From Lytechinus pictus (lineage: Eukaryota), in assembly GCF_037042905.1 (NCBI RefSeq), contig NC_087250.1, positions 18,788,001 to 18,852,000 of the forward strand: 64,000 nt of DNA. Reading direction: 5' to 3'. Shown piece by piece: positions 1 through 9,531 of this stretch. The notes below the pieces were generated by a model. The model ran no database searches. It was not told the DNA's origin and saw only the letters and a list, made by a program, of their open reading frames with translations. Made by a program: the position numbers and the translations under genes. Within the stretch, counting starts at the first letter, position 1; each line of letters starts with the position of its first letter.

Positions 1-997
1 CAACTTCAGGTAAAGGGTCAACAGGTCATGTCATCAAAGGTCACCTGGAGGTCACGACGCGCGCGTACGCGCTCGTCAAATTTTTAAAATGCTCAAAATC
101 ACTTTTTGACCGGAGTAAAGTACGTTTCAGGTCATTTTAAGCATTTCAAAAATTTGCGCACGCACAGGTATGCGCGCGCGTTTCCGCGCGTAACGCCTTC
201 AACGCAACACAGAAACGCCGTTTTTTTTATATCATTGCATTGATAATATAATTCTGAGCAATTTGATACCTTGATCAACCTTCTACGACCATTAATAACG
301 AAATTAACACCCGTTAAAGTTTGCAGCATGTGTGCGCGCGAGCTCTTACTATAGGCCATATATGGGCAAAAACATGCCTATTAAAAATTCACTGTAGTTT
401 TTTAAATAGTCCGTTGACCCTCAATTTTTTTTCATATATCGATAGAGTATGAGTAGTAGATTTGATTTCATGTCACCATTGTCCCACAATTCGATCATGA
501 CGTCATCAAAATTGCGCCTAAACTGAAAATTTCATTTTTTCAAAAACGACGTCATCAAATTTATGCAAATTTGATCATAACTCCGTGAATATTGATCATT
601 TTTCGCCCAGATTTCGATATGTTGTAGTTTAGAATGTCCTCTTTCTCGTCAGTAACCATGAATTTTCATTTTGAAAAACGCATCATGGTGTAAAATTGCG
701 ATGAAAAGAGGCATGTCATTTTTCCTCATTTTACGTGTAATCTCTATGGGACATGACTTTTTCTCAAAACTAGATTCTACATTCCTCTATATCGTGAGCT
801 ATATCTCAATGTTTTCTTGCTAGTTATCCCTGAGCTTTTGGTATGATGTAGCTGAGATTCTAAGCTTTCGGAAGTGTGCCCTCCATTTTTCGATCAGATG
901 CCAGGATCATGCCCGTTTTTCGCTTGCAAAATTGGATTTGTAATTCTCAAATTTGCTCACGTGTAATCTCTATGGGAACGTGTAAATCTCTATGGGG

Positions 998-1088
998 AAT
1001 ATCGTGGCTCAATGGATAACGCACTTGACTTGAGTTCTCGGGGGCGCAGGTTCGAGTCCTGGGGGTGAACAAGATGATTTTTTTTTTC
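998..1088 (+). ncRNA. tRNA-derived (tRNA-Arg-like) Pol III cassette inside the Helentron-like body, copy 1
   Basis: A box TGGCTCAATGG at 1005-1015, B box GGTTCGAGTCC at 1049-1059, oligo-T at 1078-1088. Acceptor and anticodon stems are mispaired, so it is not a functional tRNA. Confidence 0.6.
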
Positions 1089-2622
1089 ATTTTTTTTTCT
1101 TTTTACCACCTCGTACATGATCCTTTATGATAATTAAAAGGTATGAAAGTTAGAATTTAGCAAGATTAAACAGATTATAATTACTTTTTTCATATCACAT
1201 GTATTTTCATATATCAAAGAGACCCTTTTCACAGTGCTTTATCATCTCCCGTCTTTCACAAGTATTCCATCCATAATGAACATTCCGTTGTCATCATGAA
1301 GATCATATAGATCTGCTTGAACATGGTAATAGTGATCATGATGGCGAGAATAAGGACAGACCACCTAATTCGTCCGCATGACGAATTAAAATCTAGTTTA
1401 TTTTTATTTCTTCCGTACACTTTTTTGTACACACGTTCATTCGAAATTGACATGATCAATTTCCTTCAAATTTCTGTCAGTCATCAAGCCATATGATTTC
1501 TAGTAAAATTAACTTTTTCAAGGTTATTAGGTCATCGTGACGTCATCCAGGCGCCATTTTGTAAAAATCAGGTCATTATCATATCTCGATAACGAGTCAT
1601 CAAAAATCAACTATATTTGGTATACATCAACTTCAGGTCAACGATCAACTAAAAATGTCATCAAATTCCGCGCGCGCACCTCGACGCGCACGTACGCGCG
1701 CATTAAAATTTTTAAATGCTCAAATTCGTTTCAAATTAATTTTCCATACGTTTCAGGCCATTTCAAGCATTTTGCAAAAAAACGCGCGCAAGCACATGCG
1801 CGCGCGTTTTCGCGCGTAATTGCATCTTTCAACATAGAATCGCCAATTTTTTTTATATCAATGCACCGATAATATAATTCTGAACAATTTGATACCTTGA
1901 TCAACCTTCTACGACAAGTAATAACGAAATTATCACCCGTTATACTTTGCAGCATGTGTGCGCGCGAGCTCTCACTACAGGCCACATATGGGCAAAAACA
2001 TGTCTATTGAAAATTCACTGAAGCTCTTTAAATAGTCCGTTGACCCCCAATTTTTTTTCATATATCAATAGAGTATGAGTTGTAGATTTAATTTCATGTC
2101 ACCATTGTCCCTCAATTTGATCATGACGTCATCAAAATTGCGCCTAAACTGAAAATTTCATTTTTTCAAAAATGACGTCATCAAATTTATGCAAATTTGA
2201 TCATAACTCCGTGAATATTTATCATTTTCCGCCCAGAATTCGATATGTTGTAGTTTAGAATGTATTCTTTCTCGTCAGTTATCATAAATTTTCATTTTGA
2301 AAAACGCATCATTGTGTAAAATTGCGATGAAAAGAGGCATGTCATTTTTCCTCATTTTACGTGTAATCTCTATGGGACATGACTTTTTCTCAAAACTAGA
2401 TTCTACATTCCTCTATTTCGTGAGCTATATCTCCATTTTTTCTTGTAAGTTATCCCTGAGCTTTTGGTATGATGTAGCTGAGATTCTAAGCTTTCGGAAA
2501 TGTGCCCTCCATTTTTCGATCAGATGACAGGATCATGCCCATTTTTCGCTTGCAAAATTGGATTTGTAATTCTAAAATTTGCTTACGTGTAATCTCTATG
2601 GGAACGTGTAATCTCTATGGGG

Positions 2623-2711
2623 AATATCGTGGCTCAATGGATAACGCACTTGACTTGAGTTCTCGGGGGCGCAGGTTCGAGTCCTGGGGGTGAACAAGGT
2701 GATTTTTTTTT
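2623..2711 (+). ncRNA. tRNA-derived Pol III cassette, copy 2
   Basis: Same A/B-box sequence followed by a T-run. Confidence 0.6.
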
Positions 2712-6043: not shown

Positions 6044-6144
6044 AATATCGTGGCTCAATGGATAACGCACTTGACTTGAGTTCTCGGGGGCGCAGGTTCG
6101 AGTCCTGGGGGTGAATAATGATATTTTTTTTTTTTTTTTTTTTT
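6044..6144 (+). ncRNA. tRNA-derived Pol III cassette, copy 4
   Basis: Same A/B-box sequence followed by a T-run. Confidence 0.6.
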
Positions 6145-8654
6145 AATACCTCGTACATGATCCTTTATGATAATTAAAAGGTATGAAAGTTAAAATTTAG
6201 CCAGATTAAACAGATTATAATTACTTTTTTCATATCACATGTATTTTCATATATCAAAGAGACCCTTTTCACAGTGCTTTATCATCTCCCGTCTTTCATA
6301 AGTATTCCATCCATAATGAACATTCCGTTGTCATCATGAAGATCATATTGATCTGCTTGAACATGGTAATAGTGATCATGATGGCGAGAATAAGGACAGA
6401 CCACCTAATTCGTCCGCATGACGAATTAAAATCTAGTTTTTATTTCTTCCGTACACTTTTTTGTACACACGTTCATTCGAAATTGACATGATAAATTTCC
6501 TTCAAATTTCTGTCACTCATCAAGCCCAATGATTTCTAGTAAAATCAACTTTTTCAAGGTCATTAGGTCATCGTGACGTCATCCAGGCGCCATTTTGTAA
6601 AAATCAGGTCATTATCATATCTCAATAACGAGTCATCAAAAATCAACTATATTTGGTATACATCAACTTCAGGTCAACGGTCAACTAAAAATTCCATCGA
6701 ATTCCGCGCGCGCACCTCGACGCGCACGTACGCGCGCATTAAAATTTTAAAATGCTCAAATTCGTTCCAAATTAATTTTCCATACGTTTCAGGCCATTTT
6801 AAGCATTTTGCAAAAAAACGCGCGCACGCACATGCGCGCGCGTTTTCGCGCGTAATTGCATCTTCCAACATAGAATCGCCATTTTTTTTATATCAATGCA
6901 CCGATAATATAATTCTGAACAATTTGATACCTTGATCAACCTTCTACGACAAGTAATAACGAAATTATCAACCGTTAAACTTTGCAGCACGTGTGCGCGC
7001 GAGCTCTCACTACATGCCATATATGGGCAAAAACATGTCTATTAAAAATTCACTGTAGCTCTTTAAATAGTCCGTTGACCCCCAATTTTTTTTCAAATAT
7101 CGATAGAGTATGAGTTGTAGATTTGATTTCATGTCACCATTGTCCCTCAATTTGATCATGACGTCATCAAAATTGCGCCTAAACTGAAAATTTCATTTTT
7201 TCAAAAATGACGTCATCAAATTTATGCAAATTTGATCATAACTCCGTGAATATTGATCATTTTTCGCCCAGATTTCGATATGTTGTAGTTTAGAATGTAC
7301 TCTTTCTCGTCAGTTAACATAAATTTTCATTTTGAAAAATGCATCATGGTGTAAAATTGCGATGAAAAGAGGCATGTCATTTTTCCTCATTTTACGTGTA
7401 ATCTCTATGGGACATGACTTTTTCTCAAAACTAGATTCTACATTCCTCTACTTCGTGAGCTATATCTCCAATTTTTCTTGTTTGTTATCCTTGAGCTTTT
7501 AATAAGATGTAGCTGAGATTCTAAGCTTTCGGAAGTGTGCCCTCCTTTTTTCAAAGTCATTAGGTCATCGTGACTTCATCCAGGCGCCATTTTGTAAAAA
7601 TCAGGTCATTATCATATCTCGATAACGAGTCATCAAAAATCAACTATATTTGGTATACATCAACTTCAGGTCAACGGTCAACTAAAAAATTCATCAAATT
7701 CCGCGCGCGCACCTCGACGCGCACGTACGCGCGCATTAAAATTTTAAAATGCTCAAATTCGTTCCAAATTAATTTTCTATACGTTTTAGGCCATTTTAAG
7801 CATTTTGCAAAAAAAACGCGCACGCACATGCGCGCGCGTTTTCGCGCGTAATTGCATCTTCCAACATAGAATCGCCAATTTTTTTTATATCAATGCACCG
7901 ATAATATAATTCTGAACAATTTGATACCTTGATCAACCTTCTACGACAAGTAATAACGAAATTATCACCCGTTATACTTTGCAGCACGTGTGCGCGCGAG
8001 CTCTCACTACAGGCCATATATGGGCAAAAACATGTCTATTGAAAATTCACTGTAGCTCTTTAAATAGTCCGTTGACCCCAATTTTTTTTTCATATATCGA
8101 TAGAGTATGAGTTGTAGATTTAATTTCATGTCACCATTGTCCCTCAATTTGATCATGACGTCATCAAAATTGCGCCTAAACTGAAAATTTCATTTTTTCA
8201 AAAATGACGTCATCAAATTTATGCAAATTTGACCATAACTCCGTGAATATTGATCATTTGTCGCCCAGATTTCAATATGTTGTAGTTTAGAATGTACTCT
8301 TTCTCGTCAGTTAGCATGAACTTTCATTTTGAAAAACGCATCATGGTGTAAAATTGCGATGAAAAGAGGCATGTCATTTTTCCTCATTTTACGTGTAATC
8401 TCTATGGGACATGACTTTTTCTCAAAACTAGATTCTACATTCCTCTATTTCGTGAGCTATATCTCCATTTTTTCTTGTTAGTTATCCCTGAGCTTTTGGT
8501 ATGATGTAGCTGAGATTCTAAGCTTTCGGAAGTGTGCCCTCCATTTTTCGATCAGATGTCAGGATCATGCCCGTTTTTCGCTTCCAAAATTGGATTTGTA
8601 ATTCTCAAATTTGCTTACGTGTAATCTCTATGGGAACGTGTAATCTCTATGGGG

Positions 8655-8743
8655 AATATCGTGGCTCAATGGATAACGCACTTGACTTGAGTTCTCGGGG
8701 GCGCAGGTTCGAGTCCTGGGGGTGAACAAGATGATTTTTTTTT
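8655..8743 (+). ncRNA. tRNA-derived Pol III cassette, copy 5
   Basis: Same A/B-box sequence followed by a T-run. Confidence 0.6.
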
Positions 8744-9531
8744 TCATTTTTTTTTCTTTTTACCACCTCGTACATGATCCTTTATGATAATTAAAAGGTA
8801 TGAAAGTTAAAATTTAGCAAGATTAAACAGATTATAATTACTTTTTTCATATCACATGTATTTTCATATATCAAAGAGACCCTTTTCACAGTGCTTTATC
8901 ATCTCCCGTCTTTCACAAGTATTCCATCCATAATGAACATTCCGTTGTCATCATGAAGATCATATTGATCTGCTTGAACATGGTAATAGTGATCATGATG
9001 GCGAGAATAAGGACAGACCACCTAATTCGTCCGCATGACGAATTAAAATCTAGTTGTAATTGTGTTCGTCGAAGTGATTACACAAGGCCCTTTTGGTTCG
9101 ATGAGGTAAGACACATTTTATAAATGTATTTTAAACATGTAGAACATGATGTACATTTTGCTAGTGCATTTTGAAGCTGAATAATAAATCAAAGTGTGAT
9201 TATGATAAGATATTTTCAGAAGACGTGTTGCCGTTGAACGCTTTTGCATTTTCATAATTAAAATTGGAGGATATCGCGCTCAATTTGGTAGATTCTGTTA
9301 ACATTCTCAGAAAAAAAAATGCATACGGCCATATCTGTTTTCAATTGAATTTCCTTTCCTTAGCTCTGACACAAAGAAGGACTATACATTTCTTCTTTGG
9401 ATTAAAGTTCTCTTTCATTTGTGTCACCGGTTTATTTATTTATTTATTCATCATATTTCTGATCACACTTTTAAGGAAAATGTCCACTTGGTCCAAATAA
9501 AAGTATTGACTAATCTACCCTCCATTATACA

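Follow-up and report, generated by a model that had tools for sequence, protein, structure and literature searches.

The locus considered here lies at the left end of a 64,000-nucleotide stretch of the Lytechinus pictus genome (the window; G000:C6:18788001-18852000, read 5' to 3', with all the parts listed below on the + strand), where six 5' ends of a small Helentron-type transposable element are stacked one behind another and followed by bodies of the same element that are joined to each other without 5' ends of their own. It raises the question of how such stacks of 5' ends (heads) and of bodies are formed. The original prediction was of a Russian doll, in which each new copy had landed in the T-rich microsatellite just behind the head of another. 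The analysis indicates that the stacked heads and head-less joints of this family were probably made in this way, by copies inserting at a TTAT^T that lies on the 3' edge of the microsatellite following the 5' hairpin of another copy, and that the locus itself is a remodelled Russian doll, not a clean one.

The 5' end of the element reads TAGGTGGTCTGTC-NNN-GACAGATCACC, a hairpin beginning at the very terminus, and is followed by the T-rich microsatellite, a 1.6-kb non-coding body, and then a subterminal inverted repeat (subTIR), a palindrome and AAAATCTAGT. Among tail-to-head joints an exact CTAGT/TAGGTGG is the most frequent (59 of 100 among those listed, 123 in all), and these exact joints fix the termini as 5' TAGG... 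and ...CTAGT 3'. Solo elements of one head and one body exist, for example at L003, L005, L019, L027 and L028, so that the head belongs to this body and is found fused to it elsewhere, as the original prediction had supposed. Every structural feature of the non-autonomous Helentrons termed HINE was found. The 5' subTIR GGTGGTCTGTC lies 2 nt from the terminus and its 3' partner GACAGACCACC 31 nt before the 3' end, the two being reverse complements at 11 of 11 positions; the 5' hairpin has a 13-bp stem and a 3-nt loop (-10.2 kcal/mol, z -6.0; none of 200 shuffles did as well); and the 3' palindrome, which is 10 nt from the end, has a 9-bp stem with loop CGCAT (-7.5 kcal/mol, z -4.2). The left-module microsatellite consists of 31-63 nt of T-rich TTTAT/TTCTTTAT sequence following the head, insertion is at T^T in T-rich DNA (T at -1 in 38 of 39 cases and at +1 in 36 of 39) apparently without target-site duplication, the two halves of a nested microsatellite summing to an intact one, and coding capacity, as judged by open reading frame (ORF) length, is absent, the longest ORF within the body being 77 aa. 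The array copies are therefore non-autonomous Helentrons of HINE type. The features of a canonical Helitron (Helitron1, with 5' TC, 3' CTRR and A-T insertion) were not found, the element having 5' TAGG, 3' CTAGT and target T^T. Nor do the head stacks and body runs behave as an ordinary minisatellite or satellite, in which neighbours are most alike, that likeness being confined to arrays of heads with truncated bodies described below. One further occurrence of the 11-mer GGTGGTCTGTC, at window position 25893, was set aside as a chance match.

The window contains the 3' two-thirds of a 14.5-kb array in which all copies share one orientation. It opens with the 3' 1397 nt of a short body of A type (1..1397), whose head lies upstream at L001:9686 and which ends in subTIR, palindrome and CTAGT. 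A first head-less body-body joint (1398..1407), with the microsatellite remainder TTATTTTTAT between CTAGT and TTCTTCC, leads into a body of B type (1408..2748), 80-82% identical to the A type over its first 600 nt, which stops about 300 nt short of its 3' end. At a private deletion joint (2748..2749, ..CATGATCCT against GGTCTGTC..), for which a single match exists across the 812-Mb genome, this truncated body is fused to a 5'-truncated head, the first of the six-head stack (2749..3202). TAGG occurs within the stack at 2821, 2902, 2971, 3043 and 3119, and the hairpin half GACAGATCACC starts at 2761, 2837, 2918, 2987, 3059 and 3135. Each stacked head is a 13-bp-stem hairpin followed by a T-rich microsatellite, that of the last head being intact at 40 nt, and Tandem Repeats Finder reports 2749-3197 as 6.0 copies of period 76 with 84% matches and a score of 611. 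Fused to the innermost head is a short A-type body (3203..4818), 99.6% identical to a body of an array on another chromosome (C8) and ending in the 3' terminal module (4776..4818), which comprises subTIR GACAGACCACC, the 9-bp-stem palindrome with loop CGCAT and AAAATCTAGT, with further copies at 1355-1397, 6395-6437 and 9012-9054. A second head-less joint (4819..4828, again TTATTTTTAT), another short A-type body (4829..6437), a third head-less joint of a minor type (6438..6443, TTTTAT) and a 2.6-kb fused body termed L (6444..9054) complete the array. The internal joint of L, near 7547-7552, connects a body cut at position 213 of module b4 to a body from position 111 of module b1, and this same fusion was seen at 19 places among the sampled loci.

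The 3' end ...GAATTAAAATCTAGT terminates at 1397, 4818, 6437 and 9054; the first three ends are followed by TTATTTTTAT or TTTTAT and then, without a head, by the body start TTCTTCCGTACAC (1408, 4829 and 6444), and the fourth abuts unique DNA TGTAATTGTG... The right flank of the whole array (9055..9066, TGTAATTGTGTT) and the left flank (..TTCATCAT at L001:4571) together make a TCAT^T target. Repeat and pattern searches thus bore out the six heads, the head-less joints at 1397/1398, 4818/4819 and 6437/6438 and the exit at 9054/9055 that had been read from the sequence, with two amendments: the stack of six stands, its first member being a truncated head fused to a 3'-truncated body and not a full one, and the last body does exit into unique DNA, as a fused variant and not as a plain body. 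Upstream, where another head stack had been suggested, the array continues for 5.4 kb to a start at L001:4572 and there holds ordinary head-plus-body units, beginning with two heads and a body. With H for a head and B for a body, the order of units over the whole array is H2 B, H B B, H B, a truncated B, and H6 B B L, which amounts to 10 heads and 7 tails, with 6 heads against 3 tails in the window.

A census by exact patterns in the animal's own 812-Mb genome, in which all reversed-pattern controls gave 0 matches so that chance is excluded for the head and joint patterns, returned 1163 heads, 347 head-head joints, 139 head-less body-body joints with a remainder of 12 nt or less, 6 with a longer remainder, and 139 head-to-body joints with an intact microsatellite (about 138, one listed row being spurious). 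The joint types recur with consistent anatomy at many loci on at least 15 contigs, which argues against the idea that the stack and the head-less joints were mis-joined from repeat reads during assembly, as does the finding that short contigs of other sequencing runs bear the same kinds of ends (tail-microsatellite-head and head-body). The locus is highly repetitive, and among the short public contigs of four independent runs, out of 22 available, none bridges 2723-2816, which contains the 2748 joint, or the whole stack; an assembly artefact is nonetheless scarcely credible as the source of the pattern. The sampled loci to which the following counts refer are the family-1 clusters of head-head or body-body joints among the matches listed, from C1 to C8:18.24 Mb. 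Left out were C8:12.48-12.55 Mb for its size and, for heads of other subfamilies, C2:42.1, C3:3.4 and 58.5, C4:24.1 and 25.26, C5:37.8 and 57.39, C6:10.3 and 19.97, C7:6.95 and 20.34, and C8:10.1 Mb. Two loci of other subfamilies were retained, a family-2 array at C1:43.6 Mb (8 heads, 5 tails) and a family-3 unit at C1:30.10 Mb, and the sample was enlarged by 11 single heads from C1 and by the four long-remainder loci not yet included. The 21 arrays with at least two tails, the family-2 array among them, were compiled by hand.

The first line of evidence for nested self-insertion is that the two kinds of joint fit together. The intact microsatellite between head and body has a median of 39 nt (range 31-63; 45 of 57 cases, the other 12 forming a 7-nt class found in the arrays of heads with truncated bodies), the median spacer between two heads is 29 nt (n=94), and the standard remainder on the body side is 10 nt. 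Since 29 and 10 nt sum to 39 nt, head-head and body-body joints are the reciprocal halves of one microsatellite. The uncommon long remainders extend this correspondence, as four of the six in the genome mirror head-stack spacers of 14, 18, 14 and 14 nt (a degenerate head among these was recognised by eye), and spacers so short make up only 17 of 94. A fifth is a nest of two subfamilies on C14, in the order family-1 head, 26 nt, an element of the other subfamily through to its tail, a 28-nt remainder and a family-1 body, and this arrangement is an unambiguous nest; the sixth is without an outer head. Further nests of two subfamilies were sought, of which one candidate proved to be 5'-truncated and without an outer head and the other was a 1159-bp array extending past the 26 kb examined.

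The insertion site itself could be predicted from DNA unrelated to the array. Over 39 solo elements and arrays, the last four positions of the left flank are T (38 of 39), T (33), A (30) and T (38), and the first of the right flank is T (36), so that the target is TTAT^T on the T-rich strand. When a weight matrix derived solely from outer flanks was applied to the 45 intact microsatellites, its top-ranked cut was the one 10 nt ahead of TTCTTCC in 44 of them with all 38 flank pairs, and in 39 with the 34 pairs left after cleaning; the 6-nt cut came second in 34 and 32, respectively. Set against the 422 TTAT^T sites in 55 kb of unique DNA of the window, the 10-nt site stands at about the 99th percentile. 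The body-body joints among 100 listed are of the 10-nt type in 95 cases and of the 6-nt type in 5. Such near-invariance first gave the impression that all these joints shared a single origin; the flank-derived matrix, which ranks the very same cut first, offers an explanation of it.

A second line of evidence concerns the relationships among the copies, and it bears directly on the alternative that the arrays grew by local duplication, the head stack as a minisatellite through slippage or unequal exchange and the body run as satellite-like DNA through unequal crossing-over from one founder joint. The likeness of neighbouring head units is 84.9%, that of heads from different stacks 82.4%, and a value of 97% or more is reached by only 2 of 56 adjacent pairs, so that adjacent heads are in essence no more alike than heads of different stacks, and some stacks also hold heads of other subfamilies. 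The bodies of one array do not cluster (97.1% alike within one array against 96.2% between arrays), the A and B types are intermixed in orders that vary between arrays, and of six aligned bodies of the window locus five have their nearest relatives on other chromosomes, the top three of the sixth including an array mate. Local duplication is also at odds with the summing of spacer and remainder to an intact microsatellite, with a joint site predicted from unrelated flanks, and with balanced numbers of heads and tails above chance. It would account for the near-invariant body-body joint and for the lack of an age gradient, and true local tandem arrays do exist in the family: arrays of a head plus a 3'-truncated body, with a period of 1277-1280 bp and 99.8-100% identity within a locus against 93-98% between loci, occur at C2:2201283-2239700, C1:24679039-24681622 and C2:10764767-10769910, the first (C2:2.20-2.24 Mb) holding at least 31 units of 1277 bp, and an A-B two-body higher-order repeat lies at C2:2.19 Mb. 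Those of the 1277-1280-bp arrays that were seen to their end finish in one complete copy. Judged on these comparisons of the copies, the head stacks and body runs are not local duplications, and as an explanation of them the alternative appears quite improbable.

The balance of heads and tails provides a third line of evidence. Equal numbers were found in 8 of 21 arrays as counted, and in 10 of 21 once the local head-plus-truncated-body repeats were collapsed, where 3.3 are expected (permutation P = 0.003 and 0.00005; Spearman 0.85 and 0.65, respectively), and the balanced arrays include H4 B2 H2 B4 and a 7/7 array. Collapsing is justified by the 99.8-100% identity of these repeats within a locus. 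A segment-wise comparison by hand of each head run with its tail run gave 6 of 15 equal against about 4 expected, which was not significant, and the array-level count was used instead.

A different explanation of the head-less joints is that the 5' nick is sometimes made at the TTAT^T of the microsatellite edge, head-less bodies then being copied as rolling-circle concatemers or inserted behind resident tails, and the head stacks arising separately. The near-invariance of the body-body joint (95 plus 5 among 100 listed) agrees with such a nick, as do arrays with surplus bodies or without an outer head, an autonomous copy that is itself head-less and joined to an upstream tail, and the frequency of concatemer-type CTAGT/TAGG joints among those listed. 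Neighbouring bodies are, however, 95.5-98.2% alike with A and B types mixed, so they do not form concatemers of one circle; runs of bodies go with head stacks upstream of them, the two counts being correlated; long remainders mirror short head spacers; and no solo head-less body was found among the sampled loci. Taken with these observations, the alternative nick is unlikely.

Several observations nevertheless weigh against nested self-insertion, or at least against its having acted alone. The present locus is unbalanced: its 10 heads stand against 7 tails, its upstream part (H2 B H B B H B followed by the truncated B) has one more body than heads, and the 2748/2749 joint is private to it, so that the simple formula of n heads followed by n bodies that had been proposed for this locus does not describe it. 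Imbalance extends to 11-13 of the 21 arrays, one array has 8 heads and 10 tails, and units without an outer head exist (H L B on C23, and C2:63.1 Mb). Both the collapsing rule and the table of arrays were set up after the data had been seen. No age gradient was detected along the tail runs, innermost tails being 2.21% and outermost tails 2.11% off the consensus, with the inner tail the younger in 10 of 21 runs. Joints between the T run of a tRNA-like module of the body and a head (11 copies) have no reciprocal joint genome-wide (0 matches). Head-less family-1 body starts number 145 against about 138 with a head; TTAT^T sites occur at about 7.7 per kb, of which about 1% score as high as the site used, and the motif alone predicts far fewer head-less starts, so that compound copying or a preference in cis must be assumed. 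Finally, the exact tail-head joints and the homogeneous tandem arrays indicate that concatemer-like or local amplification also builds arrays, and the claim that satellite-like DNA had formed here without rolling-circle concatemers was too strong, given that 59 of 100 listed joints are exact CTAGT/TAGG and that the truncated-body arrays are 99.8-100% identical. The part of the original prediction that does hold, at the level of the family, is that copies land in the microsatellite behind another head, on the strength of the target motif, the reciprocal halves, the two-subfamily nest, the excess of balanced arrays and the matrix.

A possible course of events under nested self-insertion is as follows. 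Each nest would create one head-head joint and one body-body joint, and its orientation would be fixed because only the T-rich strand carries TTAT^T. The compound units could later move again, with any of their heads as the starting point and either the first tail or a later one as the end, yielding multi-head, multi-body units with unequal counts, and in those with extra bodies the first tail would have been bypassed. Units with 2, 4, 5, 8 and 11 heads and one tail occupy canonical target sites and were thus inserted as whole units. The window locus would have been built by several such events plus the private deletion at 2748/2749. In single-strand transposons of the IS200/IS605 type, which use bacterial Y1 enzymes, the target is the sequence of the left-end cleavage site; these may serve as a working analogy, in that the same TTAT^T context would be found here at the 5' cleavage site and at the target.

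Candidates for an autonomous partner are present in the genome as 35 Rep matches (G000:C10:35490-45515 and 34 others on C9-C18, C129, C142 and C186), 23 of them in open frames of 2190-3525 aa, of which 20 exceed 3100 aa. One frame of 3342 aa, antisense to the termini, contains OTU, Helitron_like_N and PIF1 domains, and its C-terminal piece, scored as a cut piece, reaches 24.2 bits for Exo_endo_phos, where the cut-off is 24.5. The frame-bearing block opens with the same hairpin and T-rich tract in two of three copies and is joined head-less to a tail in the third; the 5' sides of these autonomous copies, the only side that the comparison fixed, show one direct tail-head joint, one stack of two heads and one head-less joint. 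Apparently intact frames of 3,100-3,500 aa, with OTU, Rep, PIF1 helicase and a C-terminal endonuclease match and likewise antisense to the termini, were seen to cluster at C10:0-0.47 Mb and C12:7.8-8.3 Mb, amid many tail-head joints.

Self-insertion of this kind is known in outline from fungal relatives. FoHeli elements of Fusarium oxysporum, which are of Helitron2 type, show self-insertion with multiple 5' termini and a single 3' end (PMC5148889), for which Chellapan and colleagues proposed that a copy inserts near the 5' end of another, the leftmost 5' end is nicked and the first 3' terminus to be reached brings copying to a halt (PMC5148889). Solo elements with several heads, which the original prediction had treated as a sign against itself, do occur here, each with one tail, and are not counted as a refutation because they fit that published proposal as far as the available text of the paper sets it out (PMC5148889). 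The present elements resemble FoHeli in having several 5' ends and one 3' end, in the route proposed, and in terminal hairpins and asymmetric inverted repeats, and the target is similar as well, FoHeli1/2 inserting after TNAT and the present family after TTAT (PMC5148889). They differ in extent, the accessible part of the FoHeli account giving few cases, with one repeat of the first 31-85 nt, against up to 11 stacked heads here (PMC5148889). Reciprocal tail runs, a microsatellite or an endonuclease domain are not reported in that part (PMC5148889), whereas here there are matching tail runs, a target in a built-in microsatellite and a Helentron partner.

Among animal elements, the HINE/DINE-1 group is described as having subTIRs 11-15 bp long, with the 5' one starting 2-4 nt inside the terminus, and a palindrome 8-35 bp from the 3' terminus. 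The present family shares with it the subTIRs, the 5' hairpin, the left microsatellite, a 3' palindrome about 10 nt from the end and insertion at TT in T-rich DNA without change to the target (PMC4067079). The partner of that group has Rep, helicase and a C-terminal AP endonuclease (PMC4067079); in the candidate partner here the endonuclease match, at 24.2 bits, is just below the 24.5 cut-off, and the likeness of the termini was seen on the 5' side, in two of three copies. As with the frame here, that of one Drosophila family is known to run in minus orientation, and from sea urchin Helentron proteins have been reported, not full elements (PMC4067079). In the portion of that account available, no role is stated for the microsatellite and self-nesting is not described (PMC4067079). 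Cg_HINE of the Pacific oyster is likewise a non-autonomous Helentron with a 5' microsatellite that seeds dispersed satellite-like arrays (PMC7492417); its arrays consist of internal central repeats between end modules, whereas whole heads and whole bodies are repeated here, and the word 'nested' has 0 occurrences in the paper (PMC7492417). The introduction of the same paper cites tandem Helitron arrays with 3'-truncated inner copies (PMC7492417), a description that fits the 1277-1280-bp arrays of heads with truncated bodies ending in one complete copy but does not yield stacked heads followed by stacked bodies.

Some additional features of the family were observed. Tails of single-tail elements are 3.6% off the consensus (n=22) against 2.1-2.2% within multi-tail arrays among the sampled loci; either the arrays are made of younger copies or the solo elements mix more subfamilies. 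Head variants (loop TAT or AAC, GCC or GCT) had no association with body type usable for mirror pairing, the sole trend being a prevalence of TAT in the outermost head, of AAC in the innermost and of L as the last body. In a related subfamily at C1:43619350-43633749 (L012-L013), a tail-tail stack, with its two 3' ends 147 bp apart, immediately precedes a stack of two heads, possibly a nest near a 3' end. At C16:681013-697490, six exact CTAGT/TAGG joints recur with a period of exactly 3,291 bp and form a homogeneous head-to-tail array of a longer family member. At C5:57181000-57206999 (L068, L094 and L097), another subfamily, with an 8-nt-loop head, forms a 1159-bp array of at least 17 units that ends in a complete copy, followed by a head-less family-1 body.

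Each body in the window also contains a stretch (..GGTTCGAGTCC..) that, with the T runs following it, resembles a Pol III unit with its terminator, at 4421-4519 and also at 1000-1098, 2625-2725, 6046-6140 and 8657-8757; neither ARAGORN nor Rfam gave a call for it, and 'tRNA-like' describes an impression only. Its T run (..TTTTTCAT^T) is a second recurrent place at which head stacks start, with 11 copies genome-wide. A 19-nt word, ACGTGTAATCTCTATGGGA, occurs once in the middle of each body and twice in tandem about 230 nt further on (733-751 and 959-996 in the window). Other repeats of the window are a G25 run (16604-16628), 36/72/75-nt repeats (23687-24019), a 109-nt repeat of 2.9 copies (39035-39351) and (TCAA)56 (40097-40318).

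In many invertebrates, HINE/DINE-1 elements rank with the most abundant repeats, and their 5' microsatellite has been described, in the accounts available, without an assigned role. In the literature outside subscription journals, no report was found in which animal Helentrons form reciprocal stacks of heads and tails or use the microsatellite as a target, and PMC5148889, in its accessible part, was the only account found of self-insertion giving several 5' ends. A broader proposal, which is plausible but more doubtful than probable, is that the 5' microsatellite of HINE/DINE-1 type may be a built-in, near-optimal target of the elements' own transposase, making Helentron families self-homing, and that a ratchet of nesting, re-mobilisation (outer head to first tail) and re-nesting may produce multi-head compounds and satellite-like arrays by transposition alone, with the orientation locked by the T-rich strand. 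Because the genome holds transposase frames that appear intact, this self-target claim lends itself to direct testing. If it is true, the tract as the preferred target of its own family would explain the pile-up of copies in one orientation and the origin of compound elements with many 5' ends, the bracket structure of the arrays would be a readable record of the order of insertion, and there would be a transposition-driven route from a transposon to satellite-like DNA.

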